In this document: one piece after another, positions 1 to 63,275 of the stretch
Numbering within the stretch: the stretch's first letter is position 1
How the letters are laid out: each line of letters starts with the position of its first letter
Origin: Catajapyx aquilonaris
Lineage: Eukaryota
Assembly: GCA_000934665.2 (NCBI GenBank)
Contig: KZ538245.1
Location: 1 to 64,000 of the forward strand
Direction: 5' to 3'
DNA length: 64,000 bases
Made by a program: the position numbers and the translations under genes
Notes under the pieces: model-generated
Told to the model about the DNA's origin: nothing
The model's database searches: none
What the model saw: only the letters and a program-made list of their open reading frames with translations

Positions 1-1197
1 TTGGATGACAAGAATGAAATCGCCATCAGCTAAGTCATTGCTATTAGCACCCTGTTGTTCACCCTGAAACTTTGCAAGGAGTACTGGATTCTTATCACCC
101 TTGTCTTCCATTTCCTTCATCCACATCATAACACTGGTGGCATCGTCATCATGGCGATTGCCATGCCCGGCAATCCCATATGACTTACCGATGTTTTTGA
201 TATCATTCTTGGTTAGTAATTGCATTCTACTTAAGACCCCATCACCACTGAGTTTACGTGCATCATGCAAGATAGTGTCAGAACTTAACTTGGCCTTCAA
301 CTGGTGTGCAATGAGTTCCCTGTCATTGCCGCTTAGCGGTAGCAAACCAACATTCAGCTCGTGCCCATAATGTTCCATGCAATATGACACATGATATTCA
401 CCAGAAGGTTTCACCTTAACTACCATGTGTGCAGTGCAATGCCTCTCAATCTTTCTGCTCTTGTTAAAGTCATTTCCTACCTCGGCCCTGCAATTTCCTG
501 ACCTGTTGCAGTACATACGGACAACATTGTAGTGAGTGTACCTCTCAATGCCACAAATTTGCACAAAACTTGTAGTGGTCTGTTGTTCCATGTCTGTCTT
601 CCAAGTCTCAAATTCTGACACATCAGTAAAGCTTTTCTCCTGCATGAAATATTTTGCAACGTTGTGAGATTCGTGCAAGTGGTGTGTGAGGGCTTTCAAA
701 GTCACAAAAGTTTCGGTACAGTTTTGACATTGTATATGGTGCGCTGCGTCAATTACCATGTCCGTGTGTTCAGTCCGAATGTGATTGTCAAGGTCTAAAA
801 ACGTTTCCGTGCAATACTGGCAAACACTGCCAAGCGAAACACTTTCATCTACTCCCTCGATACCATTCCCGTTCCCACATGTTATTGCAATATTATCAAG
901 AGCAGTTAGTTCATGAGATTGTGGACAAGTGCTTGTCACTGTTTCATTTCCCACTAGCTGATTCAGATTATGAATCTTCCGATGTCGATGGAGACCCTGC
1001 TTCTGTTGAAATTTTTTGTCACAAATGGAGCATGTAAATGCGCCCTTGACCTCACTTTTTTCAGGGTGTCGATTCTTTCCCTGACTTCTGAGCTTGTGCT
1101 TCCGGAGGCTGTCTTTGCTTTTGAAACCCTTTCCACAAACCTCACATGTAAATACCTCATTATCAAGGCAAGACAAACTAGATGCATGTTGCGCCAT
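1..1197 (-). mobile_element. C2H2 zinc-finger + Mutator-like (MULE) transposase ORF, running off the window's left edge
   Basis: Stop-free frame from ATG 1197 to position 1 (absent from the ORF track because there is no stop codon in the window). It encodes C2H2-type fingers (CEVCGKGFKSKDSLRKH, CSICDKKFQQKQGLHRHRKIH, CQYC..HIRTEH, CQNC..HLHESH), then YCNRSG...CTAHM...YCMEHYGH and RHDDDATSV...DFILVIQ, typical of the N-terminal half of ZnF-MULE transposases. The DDE core would lie outside the window. Confidence 0.7.
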
Positions 1198-1775
1198 GAT
1201 CCAAATTCATATGCAGACAAAATCCCACAAAAAATTGTTCACAATACAAGAATCGCTGAAAATAAGAACTACTGTATATTAATGCAGGTGGTGATGTATA
1301 CGTCACCAAATCTAGTCTAGGCGTTCCTCTAGGGTCTAGGCTGCGGCTGGTCTCAGAGATCCGACAGTGGTGTAGCAGGAAAACCTTCCTCTGCTACCTC
1401 AACTGAAGGAATGAGGATGGAGGAAGCAAGGGTACACAAAATGATTCACAGTATTGGCGACAGTATGTCTAGACGCACCACGTGACCCACTGCAGGCAAT
1501 GAAGGGGGTTTTCAGGGATTTATTTTTCTATGCCTCACTTTAGAGTCAATTATTGTACATTCCTGCTGGTCTTCGTGAACAGTACTACATTTTAAATTGT
1601 TTCTCTAGGCCTATATATAATAGTTAATGCGTAGTCCAAAACTTTCAGAATCAATATAGCTACCTTAGTTTTAGCAAATAATTATATGACTTATTATTTC
1701 TGAAAGCCTTGGAATTCCTTTCTGCCTTCCTTTCTCCCTCGGCAACAGGAGGGATTCAGCAGTTAGTCATCCCTA

Positions 1776-4422: not shown

Positions 4423-6432
4423 ATGGTGGGTAAGAAAAGACAGAGGGAAAACTCTGAAGGGACTGTTCAGAAGCCCAAAACAACTGTGCCGACTGTTCGT
4501 TCCTCGGATGATCCTGCTCCTAAGAAGGTGAGCCTACAACATACAAAAGCATACAAAAGGTACCCCCGCGAGCATAGATGGAGACGGCAGCAGGCCCTTT
4601 TTTCACCTTTCTTTATCCGACTCAAATTAATGAACTATTTTTTGGACCGAGTTTGCTGCTTCAGGCGTGTGTTCGTGTATTTATGACAGTATATTTGATA
4701 CCGTAATTGCTGAGATTGACAGAGCAGCCTGCCGAAGGTGCGGGCCTGCCGTCTCCATCTTCATGCTCGCAGGTGTACTGTACATATGTGCACAAGCAAT
4801 GTACGAAACGTACGAGCATACAAAAGCGTATGAAACATACGTACAAACATACAAAAGCATATAAAACATACCAACGTGCAAAGGCGTACAAAGCTTGCAT
4901 AACGTACATAGCGTACTATATGTACAAAACGTACAAACATACAAAAGTGTACAGCATGTACAAACATACGAAAGCATACAATATTATACAAAAGCGTACG
5001 AATGCGAAAGTAGTCAAAGAGATAGTCCATGCAACAATTACAGTGTTGACAGATGAACACTCGAGTTATAACAATATATATATATATATATATATTTTTA
5101 AATGTTATTATTTTTGTTTCCACAGCCTAAGTGGAAGAACCGCGAGCGAGTCTTGGTCTTTGCGGCAAGGCGCATAACGTACCAGGCGCGGCATCTGATG
5201 GATGACCTGCGAAGCATGATGCCGCATTGTCGGCCGGAGAGCAAAATGGAGAGGAAGGATTCACTCTTTGTCGTAAATGAGGTGAGTGCTTCGTTCAATC
5301 AGCGAAGTAAAAAACACATGCTCAGTGACGAAATGTTGCGTACATTATGACATGAAAATAGCTGTTACATTCATGTAGTTACTTTCGACTTTTATCGGCT
5401 GCATTTATTCGGTTGGATAGCACAATTATTTTTTTCACTTATTCTTTCATCGCTTTTGTGTTCTAGATTTGTGAAATGCGGAACTGCCAGAAGTGCGTCT
5501 TCTTTGAGGGACGTAGGAGAGGAGACCTCTACATGTGGATTTCAAGAGTTCCGCATGGCCCGGCCGCTAAGTTCCAAGTGGAGAACGGTACGGACAACTC
5601 CATTTTTGTCACTTTCATTTACATCTTTGCATCAATCTGTTTGTATCCTTCCAGTCCACACGTTGGAGGAGCTGAAATTCAGCGGGAATTGTCTGAAAGG
5701 TTCGCGTCCCCTCCTTTCATTTGACGCCAACTTTGAATCAGAACCGCATTACGCGCTGCTGAAAGAACTCTTCATACAGGTACGAATTATTTGGCAATGA
5801 GTTATTTGCTGATTTTTTTAAAAAAATCCTTTTGATTGTTGTCAACAATGGTTGCTGTGCCGATTCTTGTTATAACCGACGAGTTATACCTGGCCTAACT
5901 TTGGTTAACCAGCCTTGCTCATTAACGACTGGTTTTTCGACAGATATTCGGCACTCCTCACTACCATCCAAAGAGTCAGCCGTTTGTGGATCACGTACTC
6001 ACGTTCACTGTGCTGGATTCGAGGATATGGGTCCGCAACTATCAGTTGGAAGGCGAAGGCGGCGGACTGGTGGAGATCGGACCTCGCATGACCCTCAATC
6101 CCATCAAGATCTTCTCAGGAAGTTTTTCAGGCGAAACCCTCTGGAGCAACTCACATTTTGTGTCGCCCGCTGTCATCCGAAGGCAGATTAAGCAGGTGGC
6201 ATCGATGAAGTATATGGACAGAGTTCAGCAGAGGATGGCCAGAGAAGCCAAAGAAGAGGAGCTGGCTGGTCTTGGATTTAGGATGGATCCGACTGACGAG
6301 GTATTCAAAGGCGAGCCAGGGGAGGATGACATTCAAGAGTTTCATGCAGAGGCAAAGAAGAAGGGCGGAAAGAGGAGGAAGAGGTCATCAAGCGGGAAGC
6401 AAGGAGGGTGGGACGTGCAAGATATTGCGTAA
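4423..6432 (+). CDS. BRIX1: Ribosome biogenesis protein BRX1 (Brix domain); exons about 4423-4527, 5126-5281, 5468-5587, 5655-5779, 5945-6432
   Basis: Spliced translation gives KWKNRERVLVFAARRITYQARHLMDDL...HGPAAKFQVENVHTLEELKFSGNCLKGSRPLLSFD...LVEIGPRMTLNPIKIFSGSFSGETLW, characteristic Brx1 motifs, with GT-AG introns. A probable 5'UTR intron lies at 4303-4420. Confidence 0.95.
4560..4778. mobile_element. MITE inserted in BRIX1 intron 1
   Basis: TIRs gtacccccgcgagcatagatggagacggcag ... ctgccgtctccatcttcatgctcgcaggtgtac, interrupting a catacaaaag minisatellite. Confidence 0.7.
4790..5010. repeat. Degenerate minisatellite (catacaaaag/cgtacaaa)
   Basis: Tandem ~10-bp units; these explain the spurious ORFs at 4661-5177. 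Confidence 0.8.
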
Positions 6433-6841: not shown

Positions 6842-9098
6842 TCATCTCAGAAAGATTCGTAGATGAGCGGGTTTGGGCTTCCGCAATTTCTGGCTCATTT
6901 CGGTGACAAACACTACGAGAGAAGCTGCCAGTCCCATGCACCAGAAGAACATAACGACTGCGATGTGATAAATATTCAGCTTCTTTCCCTTCCCAGTATT
7001 GAAGTGCAAATTGTTCTTCCAACGGTTTTCTGCCAGGTTGAACAACAGCTTCTGATATGTCTGTTCTTCGTACCACTGATGCAATATTCCAGACTCCAAG
7101 AGTTGCTGGAAGTAGTACTTGAACGTTTGCGAGTACACGGCTCCTTTGTGGGTGGTGGCCACCACAAAGATCTGGTAGTTTTTCATCGGAGCGACCTGAA
7201 AAGTCAGCTCTCCGCTTGGATCCATGAATTCGCCCACTACCCGATATATGAAGAAGCTGTATGCAATGCAAGCACGCTCAGGAATGCCCACAACTTTCTC
7301 CACGCAGGACAGCGAGTTCAGGATGATGTCGGATTTGTTGAACAACGCAATGTGTGTCGGATTCACTATTTGCGTGCTGACCTAAACGTGGTTGGAAAAA
7401 GTTTCAGTCACATTTACGGATTAAAAGAGCTGCGATTACCCCCATATACCTGCTTCAATGCGAGAGAATCAGCGAATGGAATGATAGTCTTGAATCCGGA
7501 GTGATACAACTCGTCCAAGTTCTTGGGCAGTACCTCCAAATGCGGCGTTGCGATGATCCCAACAAGTTTGGTCCTGTAGGCGCAGGTGATCACGATCGCC
7601 AGGATCCAAAACGCAGTGGCGAAGACACGAATATCGTTGGATTCAGGCAGTTCAGGCGGCTGCTCCAGCAGCATCCTTCCAAGAGCAGACATGGCTGACG
7701 TCAACCTGAATGCAAACATATTAAATTGATTGATTGATTGATTAATAGATAGATAGACAGATGCATTGATGGATTGATTGATTAATAGAGAGACATGAAT
7801 GAATGAATGAATTGTTGATTGTTTGATAAATAATTAATAATTATTGAGATATTAATTGATTAATTGATTGATAGGTACCAACCTGAATGTGTACAGCCGC
7901 CGATGCCCAAGCTTCCAGAGGACAAAGATGCAAAGTACGACAGAGACGCACAAGTAGATCCAAGTGACTTTTGTCAGAGGCTCGAACAGAAGGTTCCATC
8001 TGAAGGACTGTCTGGGCAGAGCGGTGACGAACGTGATGTGGAAATAGTAGATCGGGTGTGTCACTTGGATGTACTGAAGAGCTTCTGGGACCAGGACGTA
8101 GATGAAGCCGCATTCAGACCTCTCTGCGTACAGCTCCCCGATGGTGCCCATCCACGATCCGTTGTCCATTTGGTAGTCCCATTTCTCCTCGGTCACAGTC
8201 GGCTGTCTGATTTTGACGTGGGCGTCCAATGCGTCCTCCAAGTGGACGCAGAACTTCTCAAATGGAGTGAGACGATGGTTCCCCAATGTATGTCTGATGT
8301 GACGGGCATTCGTTGTGTCTATCAGCTCGAAGTGGTTGAAGACAATGCTGAGGCCATGCAGACGTCGTGACATATCTGGGTAGTAGTAGTGACCTCTCAC
8401 AGTCTTGTGGGGGTAACCAACAAGTCTCAAAGGCGAAGGAGAACCAGAGTCGCAGTAGAAGCATGTGGTTTCCATGCTCAAAGCTTGTGCAGTGGAATTG
8501 TAACTGTGTGAGACAACATCAGAATATTAGTAGCTGTAAAATGGGACAAATCTTTGTTGTCAACAACTCACCTGGAGGCCAGCTTGAATCGGATTCCTGC
8601 TGCTGGATGTTGTGTAAACATCCCCTGTGGATCTCCACGTCTGAAGTGAACCAGAAAGTAGTCGTCAAGATTCCTGATGCGAACGTGGGCTATGGCATGG
8701 AGTATCATTTTGGTGAAATCTTGAGGATCTTCCAACACGAAGAGGTTGAGGGCGCATGTACCACCAGGTGATAGCCTGGACTTCATCTCTGGAGGCATTG
8801 TCCGAAATGAGTTCATCTGCTCCTCCTTTGTGATGGCCAGATACTCGTTCCATGGCTTTGGGGTCAGCTTGGTGTGCTGACCAATACTGAGAGACACTGA
8901 TGGCCTATAGGACAGTCTCAGTGGGACGAATGTGTCATTATCTGATTTGACTATCACCAGGGAACAATCAGAGTGCTCCAATTCGCGCAGAAGGTCTGAA
9001 ACCAGCTGGTTCAGGACATGATCTTCTTCAGATTCAGGAGTGGTTGACGGTAACCCAAAGGTCACGGTCAGCCAGAGAAGAGACAACCAAGCCCACAT
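6842..9098 (-). CDS. Divergent ionotropic (chemosensory) receptor IR-A; introns about 8505-8571, 7706-7882, 7382-7449
   Basis: Signal peptide MWAWLSLLWLTVTFG; S1 motif DNGSWMGTIGELYAERSE; LFEPLTKVTW (pre-M1); GRMLLEQP (pore); FWILAIVITCAYRTKLVGII (M3); LLESGILHQW; M4 helix at the C-terminus. Confidence 0.88.
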
Positions 9099-9962: not shown

Positions 9963-12576
9963 TTATCTAAGAAAAATCCTGAGGTGTGCTGGCTTAGGTT
10001 TTCTGAGTCCACAGCATGTCTCACTGACAAACCCAAGGACTGAAACAGCCAGTCCCATAAACCAGAAGAAGAAGACCACTGCGATGTGCATCATCTTCAA
10101 CTTCTTTTCGTTTTCAGCCTCGTTCTCATCATCATCATCCTTCTTTTTCCATCTGCTATCTGCCAGGTTGTACAGCTGTCTCATGAACGTCTGCTCCTTG
10201 TACCACTGTGGAAGTATCCCAGACTCCAGGAGCCTTTGGAAGTAGTCCCTGAAGGCTTGTGCATACACTGCTCCGTTGTGAGTTGTGGCCACCACGAATA
10301 TCTTGTAGTTCTTCATAGGAGCCACCTGAAATGTCAGCTCTCCTTTTGGATTGATGAACTCTCCAACGATCCTGTCTATGAAGAAGCTGTAGGCGATACA
10401 TGCGTACCCTGGAGCTCCAACAACTTGCTCCACACACGACTGGGAGTTCAGGATGATGTCTGACTTGTTCAACACCGAAATGTGATACGGATTCACAATT
10501 TGGGTGCTCACCTGAAAACATCCTGTAAGTTAGGCTTCCTGTGCATTCGTGATGTCTGAAGTGTAGCTCTGAATAGTCAGGATGAAACTAACCTGCTTCA
10601 GTGCTAATGAATCAGCAAACGGGATGATCGTTTTGAATTTGGACAAGTACAGATCGTCCAAGTTCTTCGGCAGCACTTCCTTCTGTGGTGTGGCTATTAT
10701 CCCTACCAGTTTGCTTCTGTACCCACATGTGATCACGATGGCCAGGATCCAAAAGGTGGTCGAAAAGATTCGGATGTCGTTCGAATCCGGGAGAACCGGA
10801 GGCTGCTCCATCAGCATCCTTCCAAGGGCAGCCATGGCCGAGGACAACCTGAAGGTGTAAGATCGCCTGTGACCCAGCTTCCAGAGGACCAGAGAACAAA
10901 GCAAGACGCTGGCACACAGGTACATCCAAACTTCAAAAGTCATAGGCTCGAACAGAAGGTTCCATCTAAAGGACAGTCGAGGCAGGGCTGTCACAAAGGT
11001 CAGATGGAAGTAGTAGATCGGCTGGGTCATCTCGATGTAAGGCACAGCTTCTGGGACCAGCACGTAGATCAACCCTGCCTCTGACCTATTTGATGAAAAA
11101 AATCATAAATCATATTTTGAGTCGTTCGCAACAATGTCAGAAGAGGCGCAAGCATTCGATTTCCGCGTCTCTCTGTTTGGTGCGTTGCCAAGGATGGCGG
11201 CCATCTTGAAGTGTGGGGAACGCCAACGAGGTGTAAATAGGGTACAGGCAAAAATAGGGTCCGCCATCTTTGATTCGCGCGTGTTCTTGCCATGTAGTTG
11301 CCATGGCCGCTAAAACCATCAAAGATGGCGAACCATATTTTAGCCTGTACCCTATTTATACCTCGTTGGCGTTCCCCACACTTCAAGATGGCCGCCAGCC
11401 TTGACAACGGCCCCAAACAGAGAGACGCGAACATCAAAGGCGCCGACAGAAGTTTGCGCCTCTTATGTTGACAATGTACTGACCTTCCGGCGTACAGCTC
11501 TCCAATGGTGCCCATCCACGATCCGTTGTCCATTTGATAGTCCCATTTCCCTTCTGTCACAGTCGGCTGTCTTATTTTGACGTGGGCGTCCAATGCGTCC
11601 TCCAAGTGGATGCAGAACTTCTCAAATGGAGTGAGACGATGGTTGCCCCATGTACGTCTGATGTGACGGGCATTCTTTGTGTCTATCAGCTCGAAGTGGT
11701 TGAAGACAATGTTGAGACCATGCAGACTTCGTGACATATCTGGGTAGTAGTAGTGACCTCTCACAGTCTTGTGGGGGTAACCAACAAGTCTCAAAGGCGA
11801 AGGAGAACCAGCGTCGCAGTAGGTACAAGTTGTCTCCATGCTCATAGCTTGTGCACTAGCGTTGTAGCTAAAAGGCATTGTATGGTATACACGTACTAAC
11901 AGTTTAGACATTTTTTAAAAAAATAAAAAAGTGTAGTTTTCAGACTGTTCCCATGAACCATCAGCATGTAAGACGTCAGCCAGGACATACAAACATACGG
12001 ACACACATCCTTTATATATACCATGAGAGAAAGATTAACTCACCTTGATGCAACCTTCAATCTGATACTTGCACTTGGATGCTGTACGAACAACTCTTGA
12101 GGATCTCCCTTCCTAAAGTGCATTAGGAAGTAATCTTCGAGATTCCTGATGCGAACGTGGGCTATGGCATGGAGTATCATTTTGGGGAAATCTTGAGGAT
12201 CTTCCAACACGAAGAGGTTGAGGGCGCATGTACCACCAGGTGATAGCCTGGACTTCATCTCTGGAGGCATTGTCCGAAATGAGTTCATCTGCTCCTCCTT
12301 TGTGATGGCCATGTACTCGTTCCATGGTTTCAAAGTGTGCGTTGTCTGTTGTCCGATGTTGAGGATCACAGTAGGCCGGTACAAGAAGGACTTTCCAGTG
12401 AGATAGCTGGCATGACCTGATCTGACTAGCACCAGTGAGCAATCGGAGTTCTCGAGGTCACGTAGCAGGTCATATGTCAGCTGCATCAAAACTTGATCTT
12501 CTTTGGAGTCAGTTGTAGTAGTTGAAGGTAACCCGAAGGTCACCACGAAGCAATTACATATCAGTAATATCCACAT
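9963..12576 (-). CDS. Divergent ionotropic receptor IR-B, tandem paralog of IR-A; introns about 11869-12043, 11086-11483, 10512-10592
   Basis: Same motifs as IR-A, with long near-identical stretches and an identical C-terminus LRKPKPAHLRIFLR. Confidence 0.88.
11145..11468. mobile_element. Dispersed fold-back repeat filling the IR-B-specific intron; second copy at about 62961-63275
   Basis: Internal inverted arms (cgcgtctctctgtttg..gatggcggccat..gaagtgtggggaacgccaacgag) and high similarity to 62961-63275. Confidence 0.8.
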
Positions 12577-26900: not shown

Positions 26901-28488
26901 TGCTATAGCAAGGCAGGTCCCCTCGGCGAGAGCTTGTGTATATGGCATGGCCATAGGCAGCCTTGAACTCTAAGCTTTGGCATTTCGCCCTTCAAACAGA
27001 TTGGCAACAAACAAGTTGATTCATTCATTCAATGCATCCGTTTGTTATCCTCGCACGTCTCATAGTATATAGTAGATGCGTATCGTCTGGGAACGGACAA
27101 AAACAAATAATACGCCGTATCGACCTGTGTACGTACGACAAAGGTGGTGCAATACCCAAACGTTTCAATAACAAAAATTTTTTGGCAACACTGTCCAGCC
27201 CGCTCTCAAATTGGACATAGTATGATTTGCCACTAACAGATGGCGCGCATCTACACTACTGCCATCTCACATGGCAACTGTAACTATACATGCACGTTGG
27301 TGATGAGTCAACACGCCTATCAGATGATTAATAGTAGAAATAATTTTTGATAAGATATTCGCCACCATTTTGAAACCATTTCACACAACTTTTTTTTAAA
27401 AAATGATGCAATTGCCAGAGAGTGTGACCTCTTGATGCAACAGCTTAACACATTAATAACCTATCCCAACGTTCGGACATTATATAAAATTGTGATGCGC
27501 AAGTTACAAGCTGATTGACGTACGGACTGATCCGGGACTATATACGCGTATATATATATGTGTGTGTACTTATATAGCGACCCGCACTTTATAAATACAT
27601 ATCCGCACCTCAGCCGGGAAGGATGTGAGTCTATGAATGGTCCAGCAAACGGTCAAGGGAACACAATGACCTAAAACACTGGCAAATCCGTGTGCCCTTG
27701 AATGTATACTGTGCGCATAATATCCTGCGTCTAAATTAAGACACAGTGGAACACATTCACACGTACGATTTATATTTGCATATATAGAATTGGCTGGGAA
27801 GTGACTTTGTCCCTACACGACTCGCGTAGTCACTCCACATGCACGTTGGTGATGACTCATCACCAACGTGCATGTAGTATCCCTAGTTACCACCATGGCA
27901 GCAGTGTGCGGAGAGTGACGATGCGCGCCATCTGTTTGTAGCAAATAGTACTAAGTCCAAGTGACGGGCAGTGTTGCCAAATTTTTTCGCTACTATTAAA
28001 GGGCAAGACAAATAAATGTTGTTGATTTTATATTATATGAAACTTATGGATGTTTTTTTTTTTGTTATCTTTCCAGAGGATGAAGCGCACCCTAACAGAA
28101 GTGGTTGGACTGTCCAAGATCTGCTCCAACAATACCCCTTGTGGATGGGAGGTGTACATACCATTTTCGCGTCGTTTCGACTACTTCATGGACAACACGT
28201 GAGTAAACATTTAAAAAAAAATCCAAATAATAATTGAAATGCTCAATGCCCATCATCAATTAAGCTCTTTAACTTTAAATTGCAATTCATTACAATGTGA
28301 ACTAATGTACTTTTTTTCTTCCTCTCTTCTCTCTGTACAGTTGCAAATGCCCAGCAAGCACCGCATGTGTCCTAACGGACGACGACCTGTCCGTCAGCGC
28401 GTATGTGTACCGATGCCGTCCTCTGGGTTCGTCTGCAGGCATGGAGACCTTCACCTCAGGAGTCAATGAGGATGAGACATCCAAATAA
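23991..28488 (+). CDS. Secreted six-cysteine propeptide (uncharacterised); exons 23991-24158, 28077-28198, 28341-28488
   Basis: Signal peptide (ILICACLLATSASLVLA), Ser-rich linker, furin-type RMKR, then ICSNNTPCGWEVYIPFSRRFDYFMDNTCKCPASTACVLTDDDLSVSAYVYRC. Splice phases are compatible (0, 2) and a TATA box lies about 125 bp upstream. Confidence 0.8.
25305..25394. mobile_element. 90-bp MITE with TA TSD
   Basis: TA|cactctaagaaatgtccgggttaaat...atttaacccggacatttcttagagtg|TA. Confidence 0.85.
26655..27985. repeat. Three related repeat copies (about 26655-26775, 27183-27315, 27837-27985 inverted) in the intron of the secreted-peptide gene
   Basis: Shared ggcaacactg..atggcgcgcat..tactgcca..catgcacgttggtgatgagtca. 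Confidence 0.7.
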
Positions 28489-29107
28489 AATATATTTAAA
28501 AAAAACAACAGCGGACACAACACGACGAAGAAATGGTCCAACTTCATAGAACATAGAAAGAAAAAAACAATTTAAAAAACAAACAATGGTTATATCATAA
28601 CGGCGGTGACGTATAGTCGAATGATGTTCCTTTCAAAGAGAGCAAGTCATACATATGTCATCCGCTTCCAATGTACGTGCCGGTACTTCATTAATTTATT
28701 TGCCCCCCCCCCCCCTCCTGCTCTCTTATGTGTACATAGTGTATTTAGTTTTATTACTCCCCAAAGTTTTCTGTAANCTCCCCCTCTGTTTTTTTTTGTA
28801 GTAGCGTATAGATATATGACATTTTACGGCTCAGTATTTTGTGTTTTGGAGCACAGTCAATAAACATGTGGATATTGACGATATCCACCCTTTCATTATT
28901 TATTTTTTACAAAACGAATTTTCAGGTACGTTTATTGCTTTTTTTTACGTCATGTATATAGGATACATGAGAAATACATCGCATTTAGTATTGAATTGGC
29001 CTGATCATCAAAATTTTGAAACAATAAGTTTTGTACACTTCCCACATTTCCGCCTAGATGTGCTTAATTTATTTATTTTTGTTCAATTTTAATTTTTTTT
29101 TTAAATT

Positions 29108-32853: not shown

Positions 32854-32928
32854 NNNNNNNNNNNNNNNNNNNNNNNNNNNNNNNNNNNNNNNNNNNNNNN
32901 NNNNNNNNNNNNNNNNNNNNNNNNNNNN
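32854..32928. other. Assembly gap (N run) inside the TRAM1/Ars2 divergent promoter region
   Basis: 75 N bases next to G-runs; YY1-type motifs (aaatatggcggc, aaacatggcgg) at about 33003-33041; probable non-coding Ars2 exon donor at about 33202. Confidence 0.9.
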
Positions 32929-44563: not shown

Positions 44564-47500
44564 ATGTTTGGACTTGCATCTTGTCTGTTGGCCGCACTTT
44601 TGATTCAAGTGATGGGGTCGACAAAAGTGACATTGACCTCTGCAGGTCACCTGGAGGACCTCATGTTTGACCTGGTTCAACATGTGTCAGCTGAGGACTG
44701 CTCGTTGGTCCTTGCATGGGACGGACCTGTTATGTCCGAGTCCCTCCAGAAGCTTCTGCGTGTCTCGGGTCAGGTCAGGTACCGACCTGTTGTGACCACC
44801 AGGATGACCTCGTTTGAATTCAACTGGCGTGACTACCCTGGTGTACGGTCGGACGACTGGTTGTACTCCTTCGACACCATGCCTCCAGAACTACGGTCCA
44901 ACCTGTGGCCAGGCCCGTGCTCCTTCAACTTACTGGCACCTAGTACTGGGTGAGTCATACTCTGCCAGTGGATAGATTGGACCAATAAGAATCGAAAATG
45001 TAGAGGCGTGAAATGTCGACAAACTAACCGTTAACGATGTACAGAGCATCAAAGACAGCACTGCCGTCAGATATGAGAAGACCGTAACTCATTATCCACT
45101 TCCCTTGCGGCGAGAAAAGACATCAAGTGTTACCGAGAGCATCCAAGAGGTGGCGTTGGGGGAAGGGGGAAAAAGGAACGGCATCCCAACTCCACCTGTT
45201 GGGTGCTTTTGGTACCACTGCTTTTTTTCTCGCCGCAAGGGGAAGTGGACATTGAGTTACGGTCTTCTCATATCTGACGGCAGTGCTGTCTTTGATGCTC
45301 TGTACATCGTTAACGGTTAGTTTGTCGACATTTCACGCCTCTACATTTTCGATTCGTATTGGTCCAATCTATCCACTGACTCACTCTGCAGATCCGTACG
45401 GCAACTCGTGGTACACTTGGCGTCCGCTGTCCGTACTGTGAATCTCCGTGACAAGTTCATGTTCTGGATGCCGCCGAAGACATCACCGACGTTCATGCTG
45501 GATCCGCCGTTGAATGGTATCCGGCTCAAACTGGCTGCCGTACCGGTACGCAACGCCGTACAGTTAAGCACCATCTGTTTCTACTGCAACAACGGTGAAC
45601 CTACGATACTCGATCTCGGACGACACCGGTCCAACATTGCACTTCAGACCAGTGCATCGTTGTACCCCGACAACTCCCGGAACTTCTACGGGAAGACCGT
45701 GTCCATATGCAACATCGTGGACGTCGATCTGTCCGGAGCACGACGTAACCTGGAAGCGGGCAACACCCACGCTCTGTCGATCCAACAACGGATGGTGACA
45801 ATGTACGAAGACTTCTTCAACTTCACAGCCACCATATACGTACCGGAGCTGTCCGAGAACATACTGGAGTCACGTCTACCCAACGGAAGCTGGAGCGGTT
45901 CGGTGGACACGATCCAGACTGGGAAGGCCGTCGGTGTGCTCATATCGTACATCACATCCGAGGCCATACCTTTCGTCGAGGTGCTGTACCCTCTGGTCCC
46001 ATCGTACCTGTCATTCGTCACCAGAAAGGCCAGGGATGTCATCAGGGTCACGGTGTTTCTGGCCCCGTTCACCGCAGTCACATGGGGCATGATCACCGTG
46101 GCCATCGTGGTATCGCTGCTCTTCATGTACGGCGTCGTCAATCGCAGGTGCGGTCCACCGACGACGACCCACCAGATGTCGCTCAGGAAGGCTCTTCAGG
46201 TACGGGCTTAATCCTATTCGCATCGTCAAAAGCGAGAGGAAAGTGGACCCGTTCCGGAACAGGCACACGTCCATGTAGATCCGTTCTGGAACCGATCCAC
46301 TACTTCCATAGAGCCGTTCTGGAACCGGCCCACTTCCATAGACCAGTAACAGGCCCAACTTCCATGCAGACCCGTTCCGGAACCGGCCCACTTCCACAGA
46401 CCCGCTCCGGAACCGGCACACGTCCATATAGATCCGTTCTGGAACCGATCCACTACTTCCATAGAGCCGTTCTGGAACCGGCCCACTTCCATAGACCAGT
46501 AACAGGCCCAAATTCCATGTAGACCCGTTCCGGAACCGGCCCACTTCCACAGACCCGCTCCGGAACCGGCACACGTCCATATAGATCCGTTCTGGAACCG
46601 GTCCACTTCCACAGACCCGCTCCGGAACCGGCACACGTCCATATAGATCCGTTCTGGAACCGGTCCACTCCCATAGACCTGTTCTGGAGCCGATCCACTA
46701 CTTCCACAGACCCGTTCTGGAACCGGCCCACTTCCATACGACCAGTTCCAGAACAGGCCCAACTTCCATAATTATATAGACCCGTTCTGGAATCGGTCCA
46801 CTTTTAAGGTTCCCCGAAGGAAGAAGAGAGTTACCGAGATAAATTATTATCATCAAATTTCGTGGTTTCATTGATGCCTTGGCATGGCAACCGGTTGCCG
46901 TGGAAAACCCGGTTGCCATGGTAACGGAGCTTATTGGGGGCGATAAGGAATAAGCAAGAGCGAACAAACAAATGTCGCTTTTTATCGTTTGTGTCATGGT
47001 AACCAAACATGGACAAACGACGAACCAAATGAACAAACATATTGTCTTTTTATAAAATGGCATGGCAACCGGTTGCCATGGAAAACCATATGGTAACGAA
47101 ACCTGGACAAGGAAGCAAGCGAACGAACAAACATTGCTTTTTTTTATCATTTATATGACATATGGCAACCGGTTGTCATGGTAATCGAACCTGGACAAGC
47201 AAGCAAGCAAGCAAACGAACAAACGAACAAACCGCTGCCTTTTTTCATATTTACATATGACATTGCAACCGGTTGCCATGGCCCATATGGTATAGTAGCC
47301 AAACATGGAAAAGGCGAACACACGAACGAACGAACACGTTGTCTTTTTTTTTATCACACATGGCATGGCAACAGGTTGCTTGTCCAGGTTTCGTTACCAT
47401 ATGGCAACCGGTTGCCATGGAAAAAACGAGTTGCAATGGTAACGATAACCTGAACAAGTAAAAGAGCAAGCGAACGAAAAACAACCAAACATTATTGCCT

Positions 47501-48752
47501 TTTTATAATACAAGTAAGGATAGAGATATTTTGAAGCCCATTATCTCGGTAACGATGCTTCGGAGAGGTCAAATGTCATATCTTTACTGACATGATGTGA
47601 CCCCTCCTGACCTATAACGAGTCCTCAGAAGTTGTGACCTGTACCCAGCACACTGTATATTATATATAACTTTCCCCTCAGGTTGTTCTTCGCGAATTTG
47701 TGGAGCAGTCGATGCCGTTGCCGGACATGGACGCCCTCCGATGCTTCTTCGTGTTCCTGGCCTTCTTCGCCGTCGTGGTCGTCTGCGGCTACAAGTCCAA
47801 GCTGGTCGCGTTCCTGACCTCCCCGGACAAGGAGGTGGTGCCCAAGACCTTCTCGGAGCTGGTCTCCTCGGGCTGGGACGTCGGGATGCCCTTCATCGAC
47901 TTCACAGCCATGCACATCATGTCCAAGTCCGTCCAGTCCGACATGAGCTCCTTCCTCACCAACACAGCCGAGAACGTCGGTACCATCCGGAAGTGCTTCA
48001 GAACCGTCCTGGACGACGACTTCGCCTGCGTGGCCTACGACTACTTCCTGGAGCTGGAGAGAAACAGCTTCATCACATCTGACGGCACATCCAAGGTCTG
48101 TCCAAGTCTGAAACATATAGAAAAACAAACCGGAAAATGACGTAAACGACCAGAAATCATTTTGTGACCCCTAGACACGCGCGGCAACCCACATTGCACG
48201 TGCAATGCGGGTTGCCGCGCGTGTCTAGGGGCACAAAATGATTTCTGGTCGTTTTCCGGGCACAGTCGCACAAACTTGGACGAATTTTGTGCCCCCTAGA
48301 CACGCGCGGCAACCCGCATTGCACGCGCAATGTGGGTTGCCGCGCGTGTCTTAGGGGCCACAAAATTACTTCTCGCTTGTTTTGACCTTCCTTTTCCGTC
48401 CAAGGTGTACTGGTCCAAGGCGTCCACGTACGATTTTTACATCACGTCGATGCAAGGTCGTGGTCAGGTGTTCGCAGTGGCGTACCAGGCCATGCACGTT
48501 CGGACCTTCGAGAGCGACGTGATCATGAAGGCCATCAGAGACGAGATGTGGGGGAAGTTCATCACGTCCTTGTTCCAACAGAGGAGACTCAAGCGGTACC
48601 GGTACTTCACTGGAGACGAGTACATACTCTCCATGTACAAGCTCTCGTCCGTCTTCATGCTCTGGGGTGTCGGTCTCTGGATGTCTCTTCTGGCTATTGG
48701 ATGCGAGGTTGTGACTGGCTGGCTCTGCTTGCCCACACTCTCGGAAGGTTGA
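44564..48752 (+). CDS. Divergent ionotropic receptor IR-C; introns 44950-45391, 46200-47681, 48096-48404
   Basis: Signal peptide; FDTMPPELRS shared with IR-A/B; LPNGSWSGSV, FLAPFTAVTW, REFVEQ, VVVCGYKSKLVAFLT and an M4 helix. Frames join across all three introns. Confidence 0.85.
44966..45378. mobile_element. 413-bp MITE with ~150-bp near-perfect TIRs occupying almost all of IR-C intron 1
   Basis: cagtggatagattggaccaata...ccttgcggcgagaaaa is mirrored by ttttctcgccgcaagg...tattggtccaatctatccactg. Confidence 0.9.
46245..46800. repeat. ~29-33-bp GC-rich minisatellite with higher-order periodicity (gttccggaaccggcccacttccatagaccc)
   Basis: Tandem array in IR-C intron 2; the source of the repetitive spurious ORFs here. 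Confidence 0.9.
46880..47500. repeat. Degenerate repeats built on the palindrome catggcaaccggttgccatg
   Basis: Motif recurs at about 46883, 47060, 47162, 47265 and 47401. Confidence 0.8.
48145..48370. repeat. Two near-perfect palindromes filling IR-C intron 3
   Basis: ttttgtg..ccctagacacgcgcggcaaccc.cattgcacg.gcaatg.gggttgccgcgcgtgtct.aggggc.cacaaaa occurs twice. Confidence 0.85.
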
Positions 48753-49513: not shown

Positions 49514-51273
49514 ATGGACCCGCCGGTACAACCAAGCATCAACGAGTCCTTCTGCGCAAGGGACGACCACGAGACGTCTCGAGTGTGTCTGACAGAGGCA
49601 TGGGCACCCTCGTGTTGTTACCCGGATTACCCTCAGTACTTCAACATGATCGCCGGGTCATACTGGCTCCTCCTTTGCATTGTCGGCGGATTTGGCAACA
49701 TGATGGTCCTGGTGGCCATACCGTACGCCAGATGGAGATGCACCGACCCTCGAAGTCCCCTGAAGATAGAGCTGCACCACCGTGCTGCTCCTCAGTCTCA
49801 GCCTGGCCGATTGTCTCTACTCCTTCATCACCCTTGGAGGATCGGCCATCACCATGCTCAACAGGAAATGGGTTCTAGGAACCTCCCTATGCTACATCTT
49901 CGCCTTCACTAGCCACTTGCTAGGGGTAGCCTCGCCGTACTCGCTGGCAGCCGCTACAATGAGCAGGTAAAAGCCACAATAACGTTCGTTACAAAGCCAC
50001 AATAACGTTCGTTCCGCTCAAAAGAACGATGGAACTGTGGTGGCCATCAGGAGCCGAATGAATTGATCTTCGAGCCTTACAGCGGAATCCCATTTGCAAT
50101 CGGTGTCTGGCTAGTGGCCAGTACAGTGCCGATACTAATAGCCGTGAGTACATATTACAAGTACATTATGGAATCCGGACCTTTCGCCCCCGCCGTTTCG
50201 CCCCGGACTTTCAGTCCCGGAGTATTCGCCCCCGTGACACATTCTACCAGTTGAATGTGTCACGGGGGCGAATCCACCGGGGCGAAAGATCCGGATCCAG
50301 GCCGAATGCTTCACAGTATCCGGATTTCACCCCCGCCGTTTCCCGGCGGATTCGCCCCCGTGACGCATTCTATTAGTGGAATATGTCGCGGGGGCGAATA
50401 CGCCGGGGACTGAGAGTCCGGGAGCGAAACGGCGGGGGCGAAAGATCCGGATACTTTGAAGCATTCGGCTGCGAATTTCTAGAGAAGCTTGTGTGTAGCC
50501 TGGAAACGGCGGGGACGGACGCTACATTTTTTTGCACTAATCTGCTGGCATCACAGGTGCAGAATGGTTTTGGCTACAGTCGCATACAAGGTAACTGCCT
50601 CATAATCAACATGAACCAAGTGACAGCCGATGTCATCTACGGTATCGCAATTGGTCTGCCATGGATATCTGTGCTTGCATGTCTCGCCATGATCTGGATC
50701 AAGCTGAACCAGAACTGGACCAGGTTGAAGCAGTTTAAGTGAGTTTTGGCAGACACTCGAGGGCAAAGTGGCCATTTTGTTGACAACTGAAGCAGACACT
50801 CGGGGGCAAAGTGGCCCTTTTTTAACAATTGAAGCAATTTTGTTGGCCAGCACTTTCAGATGCTTCATACTAAAGTATATTGTGGTGTCCACTCATATAC
50901 AGAGACATAGGAAAGACAACTCTTCAGGAAGTAAAGGAGCGTGAGAAGAGGATGGCCATTCTTCTGGCCTTTTTGGGTGCTGCATACTCCAGCACCACAG
51001 CACCAGTGGTGGTCATCTACGTCTGCTGCACCGGTGGTCCTTGGGCCAAGCCATACATTTACTTCGCATTTTTCACCCTCTACTACTACGTTATCAATGT
51101 CTTCATTTACATCTACAGGTATTATTCCAGATGGATAGTTTTGCAGGAGGAAATTAATTAATTTCGTTCATTTGCGCAGGATAAACAGCTACAGAGAAGC
51201 GTTCGTATTGTTTTACCACGACATGTCCAATTGGGTTAATGAGAGGCTGAGGAATCTATTGGGCGTTAAATGA
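49514..51273 (+). pseudogene. Tre1/Moody-like rhodopsin-class GPCR paralog 1, with a 4-bp frameshift near 49766
   Basis: Same five-exon layout as paralogs 2 and 3. It has ctgaagATAGagctgcacc where paralog 2 has ctcaagagctgtacg, so the coding sequence jumps between ORFs 49391-49912 and 49782-49970. Confidence 0.7.
50170..50470. mobile_element. Inverted-repeat-rich dispersed element in GPCR-1 intron 2
   Basis: tccgga.ctttcgcccccgccgtttcg ... cgaaacggcgggggcgaaagatccgga; related to 21618-21710. Confidence 0.7.
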
Positions 51274-52694: not shown

Positions 52695-55409
52695 CAATTT
52701 TTTGATGGTTTTAACTTCACTTCATTTATCATACTCTTATATTGTAAGGGTTGTATTGGAACTACGTCACATTCATATACTAATATATAACCGGCGAGGC
52801 ATTCTTCACATCGAGAGATATACTGTATGTGTAGCTATCTATGTACTATGTACATTCTCATTACGAAAGATCCGACAGATGGAGACCGAGGTAGGGCCTG
52901 CCCCCAGACCAAAAACCTAATACTAGGGCCTTTCAGGTCAAAGGTCAGGCTGAAACAAACCATTGAAAATGCCCTAAAAAGTGTGCCGATTAATTTGCAT
53001 GTGCTGCTGATTTGATGGGACCTATAGTTTAAATAGCACGGTTAAATATTTGGGGGGCTAATGGGTTTGAGAATGGGAACTCCCTGGTATAAGACAAATG
53101 TAGGGACTATGGGGTGCGTAGGGCGGGGGCTGCCGGGATGGACAACAACAAGCGAAGCCACTTGATCATTTTGATTACTTTTTTTTATTTTACTTTTTTC
53201 TTCGAAAAAAGTGACCGCCCCCTCCCATTAAGCAGGTGTCTTAAAAATTTCCAAAAAAAATTCTCCCCTCCCCCTCCTGTCCTCCCCCTCTCCCTCTCCC
53301 TCTCCCTCTCCACCCCTCCCCCCCTCTTCGCTGCTCATCCTCCGACACCTTCTGATGAAGAAGTGTTGGGGAAACTGCGACGAAGGAACAGTCGCCATCT
53401 TGGCCAGAGATGACGGATGCAAATTTTTTTTTTCTTCTTCTTCTTCTTCTTCTCAGACCGCAACCGAAGAAGCCCCGGGATTAGATCCCAGGACCCTTCG
53501 ATCGAGAGTGCGATGCGCTACCACAGAACCACGCTCTGGTGTAACGAGATTGCGTGTGTTGGAAGGGTCTAGCCTATTTACCAGATGCAGTATTCATTAC
53601 AATAATATTTTAAAGGGAAGGAAAAAGGACTTGTACGAGTAGATAAAATCGAAAATCGGGAAAATAATGAGGCAGTCTCCAGAGGGATTCGAACCCGCAA
53701 CCTCAGATCAGGAGGAAGACGCCTTAGCCCCACGCCCACAGGCTTCTTGTATTTTCCTCCCTTGTAAAACATGTACTGCCCATTCCGTCAGAAAATCGGA
53801 GGGAAAATGACTGGGAGGTTTTGGCTATAAGATTTTTATGGCTCCTAATTTATTTATTTATTTATTTATTTATTTATTCGCCTTTACAAATGCAGGTTAT
53901 TAAAATCTACGCCACTTGTACTGTACTAGCAGGTTCCGGCAGGTTCTGGATGCGAGATTTTTTTTATTGGCTCCCTGTTCATTCTCAGAGCATATACCCA
54001 TAGCCTACGAATCTGACGATTGCGAAGATATCAAATGTACGTAATAAGAAATTTAATTGCACTTTGTCACAACATATTGCAAGTTTCAAATATCGTTTAT
54101 TTTGTGCACCATGTCGAATCCACCTGTGGAAGTATGAAATCTTTTATGCTTATACTTATTTAATTGAGAAAAATAATTGGCACCGGTCTGGGATCGAACG
54201 TGGGACCTTACAATTAGCAAGAGAAGACGCTAACCATCCGCCTACAAGCTACCAACAGATATTCATTGCTTGGAAGTTGTAGTTCCTCTGCAGGATTGGA
54301 TTATTAGGCATATCTCTATATATAGGCAGTCTGGTTGCTTATTGATTTGAAAACAATATTATTGATCAGGATTATAACGAAATCATGCCTATACCAGTAC
54401 AGTACGTCATGTTTATGAATATGGAAACTGCTTATCTAGTTACCGACATGTATTGTCTGCTGAGACCATAAGTGTGAGATAACTATTATGAGAGGTGTTG
54501 CATAATGGAAATAACGTGACCTAACAATACATATTGTAATGATGTGTCTCCAACAATCAAATGTATGACAGCATAATCTTTTCCAGCGCATACTGTATTT
54601 CTGGAGAGAACATCATTACCTCATCCTGTAGTTTATTCATCCCAATTTGTCCCATTATCAGGTTAAATGTAGGGTAAAATCATTTCATAATTTTTTTTCC
54701 TTCTATTCAGCTTTATGAAAGTAAATTTTCTTACATAATTTATATTTATAATTATTGTACATCACAAGCCTTTAATTAGAACAGTTACTTACATTTTTCA
54801 CATTATAGTTTACCACAACTCCTTATTCTCTCGTTGAATCAATAATAGGCAAAATTATCTAGAAATTATTGTGAGAAATTGTTTTCATTACTCTTTGAGC
54901 AAATGTGGTTTTTTTTACAAATAATAATTACTTATTGAAATAAATAATTTTTTTTGAGTATTTGTGTTTCATACATTTCAAGTACAGTAGTATGCACATG
55001 CACTTTTATTTATTATAAATAAATCCGGGATATATTTTGTGAACTCTCCGCACATCTGCATTTCCTGACCGGTTTTTCGCAGACATGTTTTTCGCAGAAG
55101 TAATTAATATTGTGAAATTTCTAAATATAGTTTTCAAAGAATTTGAACACATACGCACATGTTATTGCCCTCGGTTAAGTAATATGTTTACGGTTGCAAA
55201 ACAAAATAATACGTGAAGCATGTCTGACAGATATAATAATATTATCCTGTCACAATATTGTCACAAAGTTTACGTCTGGAACACAATGTTAGAAATGTCT
55301 ATTGTCATTGAAATATAAGCGACACTATTCACATGTCAATCACAAGTAAAAGTGGACAGGTCAAATACAAAACAGGTTCCACACAGTTTGAATACAAACA
55401 CTCTGAAAC

Positions 55410-56602
55410 ATGGAGTGCTATCCAGAGTATCCGCACTATTTCACACTAATCGCAGCCGCGTACTGGCTTCTTATCTGCTTCGTCGGAGGGTTTGGCAATC
55501 TCTTGGTCCTAATCGCTCTTCCCTATGCGAGAAGAAGATGCAGCGATCCACGTAGCCCGCTCAAGAGCTGTACGACTGTGTTGCTCCTCAGCTTAAGCCT
55601 GGCCGACTGCCTCTTCTGCTTCATCACCCTCGGAGGATCCGCCATCACCATGTTGATTGGGAAGTGGTACATCGGTTCAGGACTCTGCTACGCAACATCG
55701 TTCGTCAGCCACATTCTCGGCATCGCATCTCCTAGTTCGCTTGCAGCCGCTACGATGAGCCGGTACATATTACTTTCCATGTAACGTAATGTAACGTACT
55801 AATGAAATATCTGACCGTAGGACGATGGAATTGTGGTGGCCGTCAGGAGCTGCGGTTATATTCGAAGCGTACAACGGCATACCGTCAGTCATCGGCGTTT
55901 GGTTACTCGCAAGCATAGCACCAGTACTCGGAGCTGTGAGTTACACACTGCTGTAAAGCAGAAACAAATTGTTAATCGCACTATATACAGGTTCAGAATC
56001 TGTTTGGATACAATCCGATACCTGGATGCTGCGTGATCATCAGCGTGGATCAGACGACGTCAAACATCGCGTACGGATTGTGCATCGGTATCCCTTGGGT
56101 CGTGGTTCTAGTGTGTCTCATACTCATTTGGGTGAAGCTGAGCAAAAATTGGTCGGAGCTGAAGCAATTCAAGTAGGTAAGAGCCGTAAGATGGGCACAA
56201 CAATTAGCTTTTAACGTTTGTTTTTTTTGTTCGCAGAGATGTTGGTCAGAGTACGCTTCGAGAGCTGAAAAACCGGGAGCGGAAAATGGCATTGTTGCTT
56301 ACATTATTGGCCGCAGCTTATTCCAGCACGACAGCTCCGGTCGTGGCTCTTTACGTTTTCAGCGAAGGAGGACCATGGGCCGTACCGTACATTTACTTCA
56401 CATTCTTAATGCTTTACTATTACGCCATAAACGTGTTCCTCTACTTCTACAGGTACGCTTTGTAATAATTGCAGCTGTGACGACGTACTGAATTTTTATA
56501 CATTAATTTTGCAGGATACAGAGCTACCGAGATGCATTTCTCCGGCTTTACAAAGACGCATGCAAATGCGGATGCCGCCAACTGTTCAGATTACGCTCAT
56601 AA
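55410..56602 (+). CDS. Tre1/Moody-like GPCR paralog 2 (short N-terminus)
   Basis: VGGFGNLLVLIAL (TM1), LLLSLSLADCLF (TM2), LCY..SLAAATMSR (TM3), NVFLYFYRIQSYRDAF (TM7/H8); five exons. Confidence 0.75.
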
Positions 56603-56979
56603 ATTTATTTGTGTACATGCCGAACACTGATTTGTATATAAACGAACACTTATGTTGGTGAGTTGTAAGTTGAACCTTTTCCGCAAAATATACGATTAGT
56701 ATTTGCAACAACTTCCTGTAATTACGGCCACTTATTTGCTCAGTCGGTTTCACGATCAATACTCCAAATAGGACATGTTATTCGCATATCAACTGCGTAC
56801 AATGCGATTTAGTTGCGACACTACCATCGACTCTGCTGCGTTTGACACATCGCAAATTGGAGGACAATGTACTCTTCGTGCGGGAGCAACAACATGACCA
56901 TCAGTTTTCTTGGCAGGACAATGCCGTACGTAATTAACTATTGTCATTCCTCCGCCAATCATCGGCTCAGTCTGCTGCA

Positions 56980-58245
56980 ATGGCAAACGGCAGCTTCAAC
57001 GTTACATACTTTTGCGCAAAAGACGACCAGGAGACTTCTCGTGTGTGCCTGACCGAATCATGGGCACCGTCATGTTGCTATCCGCCGTACCCGTCATATT
57101 TCGCCGTGATTATGGGAACGTACTGGCTCATCATGGGAATCGTCGGAGGGTTTGGAAACCTCATGGTGCTGATAGCCTTGCCGTATGCCAGAAGAAAGTG
57201 CACGGATCCTCGTAGCCCACTGAAGAGCAGCACAACGGTCCTTCTGCTGAGTCTGAGCCTCTCGGATTGTCTCATATGCTTCATCGTCATCGGTCCGTCA
57301 GCTATCGTTACGTTCATCGGAAAATGGTGCCTCGGATATAAATTCTGCTACTTTTTCGCCTTCAACTATCATCTGCTAGGATTAGCATCACCGTACTCGA
57401 TGGCAGCAGCTACAATAAACAGGTAATTGGCGATCCAAATTTTTCTGAAATTTGCGTTAGTTGTACAAACGTGTACCGCATTTTCTGTTAATTAAAAAGG
57501 GCGATGAAGCTGTGGTGTCCTGCCGCAACGGACAAGATATTTGAGCCGTACAGCAGTCTCCCGGTAGTACTTGGCGTATGGATTCTATCAAGTTTAGTGC
57601 CCATATTAGCCGCTGTAAGTATTAACAGCGCTACGTACTAATTGCGACTAATGATAATTTTAAAATGTGCAGGTCCATGATGACATCGGATACAGTCGAA
57701 TCCAAGGCGGATGCGTTATAATCACAGCGAACCTTCCGATTTCAAGCACTCTATTCGGAATAGCAATGTGTCTTCCGCTTATTGCGGTGCTTGTTTGCCT
57801 CGTACTAATCTGGATCAGGCTCAACAAAAATTGGTCGGAACTGAAGCAATTCAAGTACGAATTACTTCCCCGATTATTCACGGCACAGTAACCACACGCT
57901 GTCTTATTACAGAGGCATCAGCCAGACTACGCTACAGGAGTTAAAACGCAGGGAAAAGCGAATGGCGAACCTATTGATGCTTTTGGCCGCCACTTATTTT
58001 ACGTCGATTGCACCGATTTTCGCTTTTTACGCATTCAGCGAAGGAGGACCGTGGGTTCAACCTAACATCTACTTCACGTTCCTTACAGTCGACTACTTTG
58101 CGGTCAACGTGTTCCTCTACTTCTACAGGTAAAGGATAATCCGCAGCATAAATCCAACCCGGCTAATTTTCAATCTCTCCGCAGGATAAAGAGCTATCGA
58201 GATGCAATGGCACTGTTCTACAAAGACATGAGCTGTACGAAATAA
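56980..58245 (+). CDS. Tre1/Moody-like GPCR paralog 3
   Basis: MANGSFNVT (N-glycosylation sequons), GFGNLMVL, LSLSLSDC, AATINR, KRREKRMA, NVFLYFYRIKSYRDA; five exons. Confidence 0.8.
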
Positions 58246-58771: not shown

Positions 58772-62625
<3,854 letters not shown>

Positions 62626-62960: not shown

Positions 62961-63275
62961 ACATAAGATGCGCAAACTTCTGTCGGCGCCTTTGATGTCC
63001 GCGTCTCTCTGTTTGGGCCCGTTGCCCAGGATGGCGGCCATTTTGAAGTGTGGGGAACGCCAACGAGTACAGGCAAAAATATGGTCCGCCATCTTTGATT
63101 CGCGCGTGTTCTTGCCGTGTAGTTGCCATGGCCGCCAAAACCATCAAAGATGGCGGACCATATTTTTGCCAGCACCATATATTTATACCTCGTTGGCGTT
63201 CCCCACACTTCAAAATGGCCGCCAGCCTTGGCAACGCCACAAACAGAGAGACGCGGAAATCGAATGTTTGCGCCG
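62961..63275. mobile_element. Second copy of the fold-back repeat found in the IR-B intron
   Basis: Shared sequence with 11145-11468; the ORF-track peptides at both loci match (e.g. RKLLSAPLM..LCLGPL..AAILKCGERQR). Confidence 0.8.

Follow-up and report, generated by a model that had tools for sequence, protein, structure and literature searches.

A hairpin-filled intron of an arthropod ionotropic receptor gene and its possible origin by insertion at an AG/GT site

Recent intron gain in animals is well documented in only a few instances, and the source of the new sequence is usually unknown. The question arises again in a 64-kb stretch of DNA from Catajapyx aquilonaris (contig KZ538245.1, positions 1 to 64,000, hereafter the window), which carries three ionotropic receptor (IR) genes, here called IR-A, IR-B and IR-C. 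The predicted third intron of IR-C is filled mostly by two hairpins and bracketed by two copies of an 8-nt direct repeat, each containing AG/GT (the slash marks a splice junction). Did this intron enter a formerly uninterrupted exon, and did the duplicated target supply both of its splice sites? An origin by insertion with target duplication is the best reading of the locus and is supported, short of proof, by the in-register AG/GT repeat, the exact reading frame, the weak splice sites, the absence of the intron from the paralogs and two sister cases, taken in combination. In its fuller form, in which IR-C intron 3 would be a lineage-specific and probably young intron, gained by insertion with target duplication and more likely through break repair, this reading has a somewhat better than even chance of being right, as judged from the DNA.

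The IR-C gene model comprises four exons (44564-44949, 45392-46199, 47682-48095 and 48405-48752) and 651 codons, the reading frame is open in all four exons and every junction is of the GT..AG type. The three genes and the surroundings of intron 3 are laid out as follows.

Near 6.8-12.6 kb, minus strand: IR-A and IR-B, genes of the ionotropic receptor kind
44.5-48.8 kb, plus strand: IR-C, of the same kind, an arthropod smell/taste-type receptor gene
47682..48095, plus strand: IR-C exon 3, 138 codons that cover the M2/M3 region of the channel and some of the ligand-binding lobe, with ACA TCC AAG as its last codons
48090..48097, plus strand: copy 1 of the direct repeat, TCCAAG/GT, whose AG/GT is the predicted 5' splice site (AAG/GTCTGT)
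48096..48404, plus strand: predicted intron 3 of IR-C, 309 nt, GT..AG, phase 0
48399..48406, plus strand: copy 2 of the direct repeat, TCCAAG/GT, whose AG is the predicted 3' splice site
48405..48752, plus strand: IR-C exon 4, 115 codons and a stop codon (48750-52), including the last membrane helix

Both copies of the repeat lie exactly where a sequence-only reading of this DNA had placed an 8-bp duplication, and they are the only matches of TCCAAGGT on either strand of the window. Two matches of an 8-mer are unremarkable in themselves, with a mean of 2.25 in shuffled sequence and at least two in 66 of 100 shuffles. Joining 48095 to 48405 yields a single open frame, ...DGTSK/VYWSKAST..., which continues to the stop codon at 48750-52, and the exact restoration of GTSK/VYWSK that had been claimed is thus borne out; without splicing, the frame meets a stop 15 codons into the insert, after ...GTSKVCPSLKHIEKQTGK. 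The structure of the locus is not an assembly artefact, because independent Logan DNA contigs (three runs, one sample) tile it with no differences and at single-copy depth.

Such repeats might be expected by chance from the AG/GT consensus, an objection already foreseen in the sequence-only reading. Among AGGT..AGGT pairs lying 40-2500 nt apart in the window, an in-register repeat of at least 8 nt proved rare (98 of 3880, 2.5%), and non-cognate pairings of 5' with 3' splice sites among the nine IR introns reach this length in 2 of 72 cases. A second comparison, with AGGT pairs flanked by open frames as a stand-in for real introns, was non-discriminating (4 of 206, 1.9%, reach at least 8 nt, against 98 of 3880 overall) and was dropped. 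The chance per intron is well below 2.5%, because AG/GT on both sides occurs in only a minority of introns. Taken alone, the 8-nt repeat is suggestive, not decisive.

The predicted splice sites of intron 3 are off-consensus, the donor GTCTGT and the acceptor AAG being the poorest among the nine IR introns, and AAG serves as an acceptor in none of the other eight. The base at donor position +3 is a pyrimidine in all three introns of the window that are candidates for an insertion origin (GTC, GTC and GTT) and a purine in five of the six remaining IR introns. Weak sites are expected under insertion with target duplication, since they would be duplicated exon sequence and not evolved signals; weaker splice sites are also reported for novel Drosophila introns in the abstract of PMC2809761.

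As the sequence-only reading had also stated, the corresponding site is uninterrupted in both paralogs, IR-A (open reading frame 6845-7381, minus strand) and IR-B (9966-10529, minus strand), with no alignment gap at the junction. The spliced IR-C product is colinear with both of them without a gap, and with a springtail homolog to within about 3 residues. This absence is weak evidence of recency, because IR-C shares only 24-26% identity with IR-A and IR-B. The nine IR introns occupy seven positions, two of which are shared, both between IR-A and IR-B; since none of the IR-C positions is shared with these paralogs, intron positions appear to be labile in the IR family.

Two further introns with the same signature, of which intron 3 had been called the third example in 64 kb, were located in the other two receptor genes, each confirmed by an empty site in the paralog.

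11086..11483, minus strand: private intron of IR-B, 398 nt, with the 7-nt repeat AGGTCAG at 11485-79 and 11087-81
7706..7882, minus strand: private intron of IR-A, 177 nt, with the 11-nt repeat CATTCAGGTTG at 7889-79 and 7712-02

IR-A reads through the site of the IR-B intron at GAGAGGTCTGAATGC (about 8124-8110), IR-B has CCTTCAGGTTGTCC near 10848 at the site of the IR-A intron, and the exons flanking the two sites are 80-94% identical in DNA between the genes. Both sister introns are proven to be present in one of these two genes and absent from the other. The IR-A insert is AT-rich, low-complexity, (TCAA)n-like DNA, while the IR-B insert consists of a palindrome resembling a miniature inverted-repeat transposable element (MITE), with arms at 11176-11274 and 11318-11416, and of a T-rich tail of 43-59 nt that lies outside the palindrome family. 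A second copy of the IR-B palindrome, 81-87% identical, is found at 62961-63274; it is itself palindromic (arms 63020-63067 and 63189-63236) and has no clear flanking duplication. Among the nine IR introns, boundary repeats of at least 7 nt (7, 8 and 11 nt) are confined to three. The four introns at the two positions common to IR-A and IR-B have repeats of 2-5 nt, and IR-C introns 1 and 2 have 1 and 6 nt, respectively.

The interior of IR-C intron 3 is dominated by two tandem hairpins that make up 241 of its 309 nt (about 78%), in agreement with the earlier description of an interval consisting mostly of two long palindromes.

48098..48129, plus strand: head of the insert, outside the hairpins, where the junction motif recurs as GTCCAAG (48100-06)
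48130..48259, plus strand: hairpin 1, a near-perfect palindrome of 130 nt with its axis between 48199 and 48200
48270..48380, plus strand: hairpin 2, a related palindrome whose loop measures 4 nt (48323-26)
48381..48398, plus strand: insert tail, a run rich in pyrimidines (CCTTCCTTTTCC) upstream of the unusual AAG acceptor

The arm pairs of hairpin 1 are 97%, 96% and 92% complementary, and in hairpin 2 the inner arms are 91% and another arm pair 76% complementary; the cores of the two hairpins match each other at 89% identity over 80 nt without gaps and at 94-95% with gaps. The interval is predicted to fold as RNA with -195.1 kcal/mol, against -90.9 +/- 5.4 for shuffled sequence (z = -19.3), and none of 100 shuffles was as stable. 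A search of 47900-48600 against Rfam returned no known RNA family, only generic hairpin families below threshold (the best reached 33.2 bits, where the gathering score is 59). A possible branch site, TTTTGAC at 48380-86, lies before the acceptor along with the pyrimidine-rich tail. Besides the direct copy of the junction motif at 48100, the intron includes an inverted one within hairpin 2 (CTTGGAC, 48275-81), that is, two additional copies where 0.033 are expected (P about 5e-4).

Under the favoured reading, about 301 bp of foreign, hairpin-forming DNA would have been inserted into the exon at an AG/GT protosplice site, duplicating at least 8 bp of the target (TCCAAGGT), and the empty exon before the event would have read ...ACATCCAAGGTGTACTGG.... 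The spliceosome would take the donor GT from the upstream copy and the acceptor AG from the downstream copy, so that the insert and one copy of the repeat are removed and the original message is restored exactly. The proposed route is a staggered double-strand break repaired with capture of filler DNA, as in the model for Daphnia-type neointrons, in preference to integration by a transposase. Break-repair capture fits better because the length of the repeat varies, the filler is unrelated from case to case and extra sequence lies between element and repeat. The boundary repeats of 7, 8 and 11 nt go with three mutually unrelated inserts, and the palindromes are separated from the repeats by non-element sequence, a 32-nt head and an 18-nt tail in IR-C intron 3 and the 43-59-nt tail in IR-B. 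In the RNA, the two hairpins would compact the intron to about 60 unpaired nt, near the size of the ordinary short introns in this gene family, and this compaction may explain why the insert is tolerated.

Neointrons of Daphnia pulex, in work of Li et al. from 2009, reportedly formed at staggered double-strand breaks. The available passages of PMC4202315 (Li et al. 2014) describe, for Daphnia neointrons, exon-terminal direct repeats of 4-12 bp at the intron's opposite end in 33 cases, as well as internal repeats in 55 out of 90, and the staggered-break model is reviewed in parts of PMC3020277 and PMC3443670. The introns of the window resemble these in the exon-terminal repeat at the far intron end (4-12 bp there, 8 here and 7 and 11 in the sister cases), the insertion at AG/GT, a source of the insert that is not identifiable, what may be additional internal repeats beside the boundary ones, and the restriction of each intron to one gene copy. 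The recurrence of the junction motif within intron 3 is consistent with that model as well. Unlike in the Daphnia cases, the host is not Daphnia, the insert is longer, 78% of it is long hairpins, and it is known here from the DNA of one sample.

Introners offer a second comparison. Excerpts of PMC9860276 describe Florenciella introners, in which both splice sites come from a duplicated target carrying AGGT; introner families there range from 5 to more than 2000 copies, and among animals introners were seen in two groups only. The locus shares with these, and with the model of a transposon inserted into AGGT (PMC3443670, PMC9860276 and PMC11282704, each in part), the AGGT within the target duplication and a MITE-like insert rich in inverted repeats. 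In contrast to introners, no multi-copy family of similar introns was detected in the window and about 257 Mb of same-species DNA contigs, the ends lack terminal inverted repeats (TIRs), and the three local cases differ in both insert and repeat length. A tandem duplication of an AGGT-containing segment, as outlined in passages of PMC3443670 and PMC4974935, is similar in that a duplicated AGGT gives both sites and that the junctions of intron 3 are weakly alike over 17/21 nt, whereas the bulk of intron 3 is not exon-derived and the duplication, far from spanning the entire intron, covers no more than about 21 nt. The mechanism itself has already been published, as parts of PMC3443670, PMC9860276, PMC11282704 and PMC4202315 make plain, and intron 3 by itself is one more plausible example of it. 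Literature searches, which were not made by organism name, found nothing specific on such introns in this arthropod lineage.

Among the competing explanations, true transposition survives best and is nonetheless unlikely. It holds that the exon received a non-autonomous DNA transposon, either a MITE or a foldback element and either hAT-like or of another kind, whose 8-bp target-site duplication (TSD), containing AGGT, gave both splice sites. The duplication has the length of a hAT TSD (PMC10368747, in part), long inverted repeats dominate the insert, and the palindrome of the IR-B neointron belongs to a family with the copy at 62961-63274 noted above; the model of a transposon in AGGT (PMC3443670) and introners that co-opt both sites (PMC9860276) are available precedents, as far as the excerpts of these sources go. 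In the same-species contigs, a 36-46-nt segment of the arms is shared by about 5-6 other single-copy loci at 80-92% identity and could be a shared TIR, while no full-length second copy of the insert at 80% identity or more was seen there, and no other copy at all in the window. The likeness at those loci ends exactly at the hairpin axes (48199 and 48323/24), so they are not palindromic there. No inverted repeat adjoins the duplication, in line with the remark in the sequence-only reading that clear TIRs are lacking; the insert starts with CTGTCCAAG... and finishes with ...CCTTTTCCG, which are not inverted repeats of each other, and the 32 nt and 18 nt between hairpins and repeat are unrelated sequence. 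The sister cases, with repeats of 7 and 11 nt and with one insert of plain low-complexity DNA, also count against transposition, and a simple transposition would not leave the unrelated T-rich tail between palindrome and repeat in IR-B.

The more specific suggestion of a hAT-type TSD is not supported, since it relied solely on the length of 8, and TIRs, target pattern and family copies all speak against it. A hAT MITE would share the 8-bp duplication, but the hairpins start 32 nt into the insert and end 18 nt short of the second repeat copy, and no copies with shared termini were found in the window and contigs. The target is a misfit on either strand to the pattern nTnnnnAn, which the available part of PMC10368747 describes for the hAT element Hermes, as position 2 is C and position 7 is G both in TCCAAGGT and in its reverse complement ACCTTGGA. 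What is supported of the earlier proposal of intron creation is the origin by insertion with duplication, without its hAT attribution. A retrotransposon-type insertion with a TSD of variable length was rejected, as an A-rich 3' end is absent in both orientations, and so was a pure tandem duplication, the body of the intron not being derived from the exon.

The same arm segments allow a bolder version of break repair, which is best treated as a long shot. The genome would be in an active phase of intron birth, similar to Daphnia pulex in an unrelated lineage, and the hairpin DNA itself would be made or captured during repair: short single-copy segments would be copied and folded back by snap-back synthesis at a staggered break in an AGGT site. 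The resulting filler would be palindromic and its RNA would fold up into hairpins, which would let an insert of 300 nt act as an intron of 60 nt. This is supported by the finding that the arm segment occurs elsewhere only as non-palindromic stretches of 36-46 nt, with a likeness that ends exactly at the axes. If true, it would give a concrete answer on the origin of new intron sequences.

A further possibility, and an improbable one, is that intron 3 is an old, ordinary intron of about 60 nt in which the match of TCCAAGGT at the boundaries arose by chance over the AG/GT consensus and the hairpin element or elements landed later. Several observations that weigh against a recent insertion with duplication are also those that this explanation draws on. 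Without 48130-48380 the intron measures 58 nt, near the 68-81 nt of introns in IR-A and IR-B, so about 60 nt is a normal size for the family; its tail offers a reasonable pyrimidine tract and what may be a branch site, as the tail of an old intron would too. A palindromic complex sits in a putative G-protein-coupled receptor gene intron (about 49967-50556) with a boundary match of only 5 nt, and since hairpin elements also occupy ordinary introns, those in intron 3 could be later arrivals. Given AGGT at both ends, an 8-nt repeat has a chance of about 2.5%, and intron 3 was chosen for its repeat. No close empty site is available for intron 3, its nearest paralogs being 24-26% and its best database homologs 30-35% identical, and as IR-C never shares an intron position with IR-A and IR-B, absence there says little. 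No intron-less allele appears among the contigs, which is uninformative as they come from one sample and contigs drop variants. Splicing of intron 3 is itself a prediction from the DNA. The duplication may perhaps have been longer: 48090-48106 (read as TCCAAGGT, a 3-nt gap, CT, a 1-nt gap and GTCCAAG) aligns with 48399-48419 (TCCAAGGTGTACTGGTCCAAG), and these 17/21 nt weakly hint at an original duplication of about 21 nt (P = 0.037 when the flanks are shuffled, 0.024 when 7-mer sharing is the measure), but of 1151 real 8-mer pairs in the repeat-rich window 22.6% score as high, so the extension is not significant against them. On the other side, an old intron would need AG/GT at both ends and four more matching bases, a joint chance per intron well below 2.5%, and it would have to account for a donor and an acceptor that are the poorest of nine, for the additional junction-motif copies inside, and for a pair of verified neointrons that carry this signature too, in genes of the same family and within 40 kb.

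Pseudogenes are common in chemoreceptor families, and an unspliced insertion that recently truncated IR-C, leaving a young pseudogene or a null allele, would agree with the weak, predicted splice sites and the read-through stop 15 codons into the insert. Such an insertion is very unlikely, as the frame is open in each of the four exons, exon 4 has its 115 codons intact and follows the paralogs colinearly up to and including the last membrane helix, the GT..AG geometry is exact and brings the frame back, and the hairpin arms have diverged by 3-9%, so that the insert is not brand new and yet the frame downstream is undamaged.

The local density of such introns, three in three receptor genes within 64 kb and two of them with built-in empty-site controls, suggests a genome in which intron birth can be observed in progress. 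If RNA and population data confirm insertion with target duplication, the before/after pairs of IR-A and IR-B could be used to test which insertions become introns, to separate break repair from transposition, and to test whether hairpin folding helps large insertions to be treated as short introns.

The assignment of IR-C to the ionotropic receptors, which are similar to ionotropic glutamate receptors, is supported by its sequence relatives. Exon 3 itself matches the Pfam domain Lig_chan weakly (E = 0.003, under the cut-off), while the paralog IR-B passes it (31.2 against 30.8 bits), the matches of IR-C to IR-A and IR-B have E values of 1e-23 to 2e-24, and all seven homologs tested match the domain, six of them above the cut-off, under source names of ionotropic glutamate receptor domain proteins. 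An exhaustive HMMER protein search with exon 3 found distant relatives only, the best being springtail IR-like proteins of 30-35% identity (maximum 35%, E = 3e-20), and a word-indexed search of longer proteins gave no match to exon 3. The M4 region of exon 4 was aligned to a homolog at E = 0.036.

The other two introns of IR-C are also rich in repeats.

44950-45391, plus strand: IR-C intron 1, almost entirely one foldback with arms at 44966-45104 and 45240-45378 that are 98% complementary
46200-47681, plus strand: IR-C intron 2, 1482 nt, with tandem-repeat arrays at about 46246-46803 and about 46880-47480 and the boundary match TCAG/GT (6 nt)

The inverted repeat of intron 1 begins exactly at the donor GTGAGTCA and ends with TGACTCAC 7 nt before the acceptor. 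It has no boundary duplication (1 nt) and no further copy in the window, and it resembles an element that brings along a donor site.

Long inverted repeats are found elsewhere in the window too. The putative rhodopsin-type receptor intron at 49967-50556 (plus strand) contains GC-rich nested inverted repeats, with palindromes at 50173-50469 and the boundary CAG/GT (5 nt), and other such elements lie at 1760-2010 (with a perfect 68-nt palindrome at 1860-1927) and 27211-27960 (47-nt arms, 656 nt apart). Inspection of the flanks of the other palindromic elements in the window showed no clear duplications.

The window is animal DNA, and its host is an arthropod with no close relative in the protein databases. 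Besides the three IR genes, it contains C2H2 zinc-finger, Brix, rhodopsin-type receptor and ribophorin II genes.

1-1206, minus strand: C2H2 zinc-finger open frame, extending past the start of the window
5351-6429, plus strand: Brix-domain gene
55407-55781 and 56938-57423, plus strand: two 7tm_1 receptor exons
59675-60850, minus strand: ribophorin II, a single open frame of 392 codons

No protein found is more than 48% identical to ribophorin II, whose best named matches are insects, followed by other arthropods, with cladocerans at 42-44%. Runs of N mark assembly gaps at 28777 and 32854-32928, 76 bases in total.

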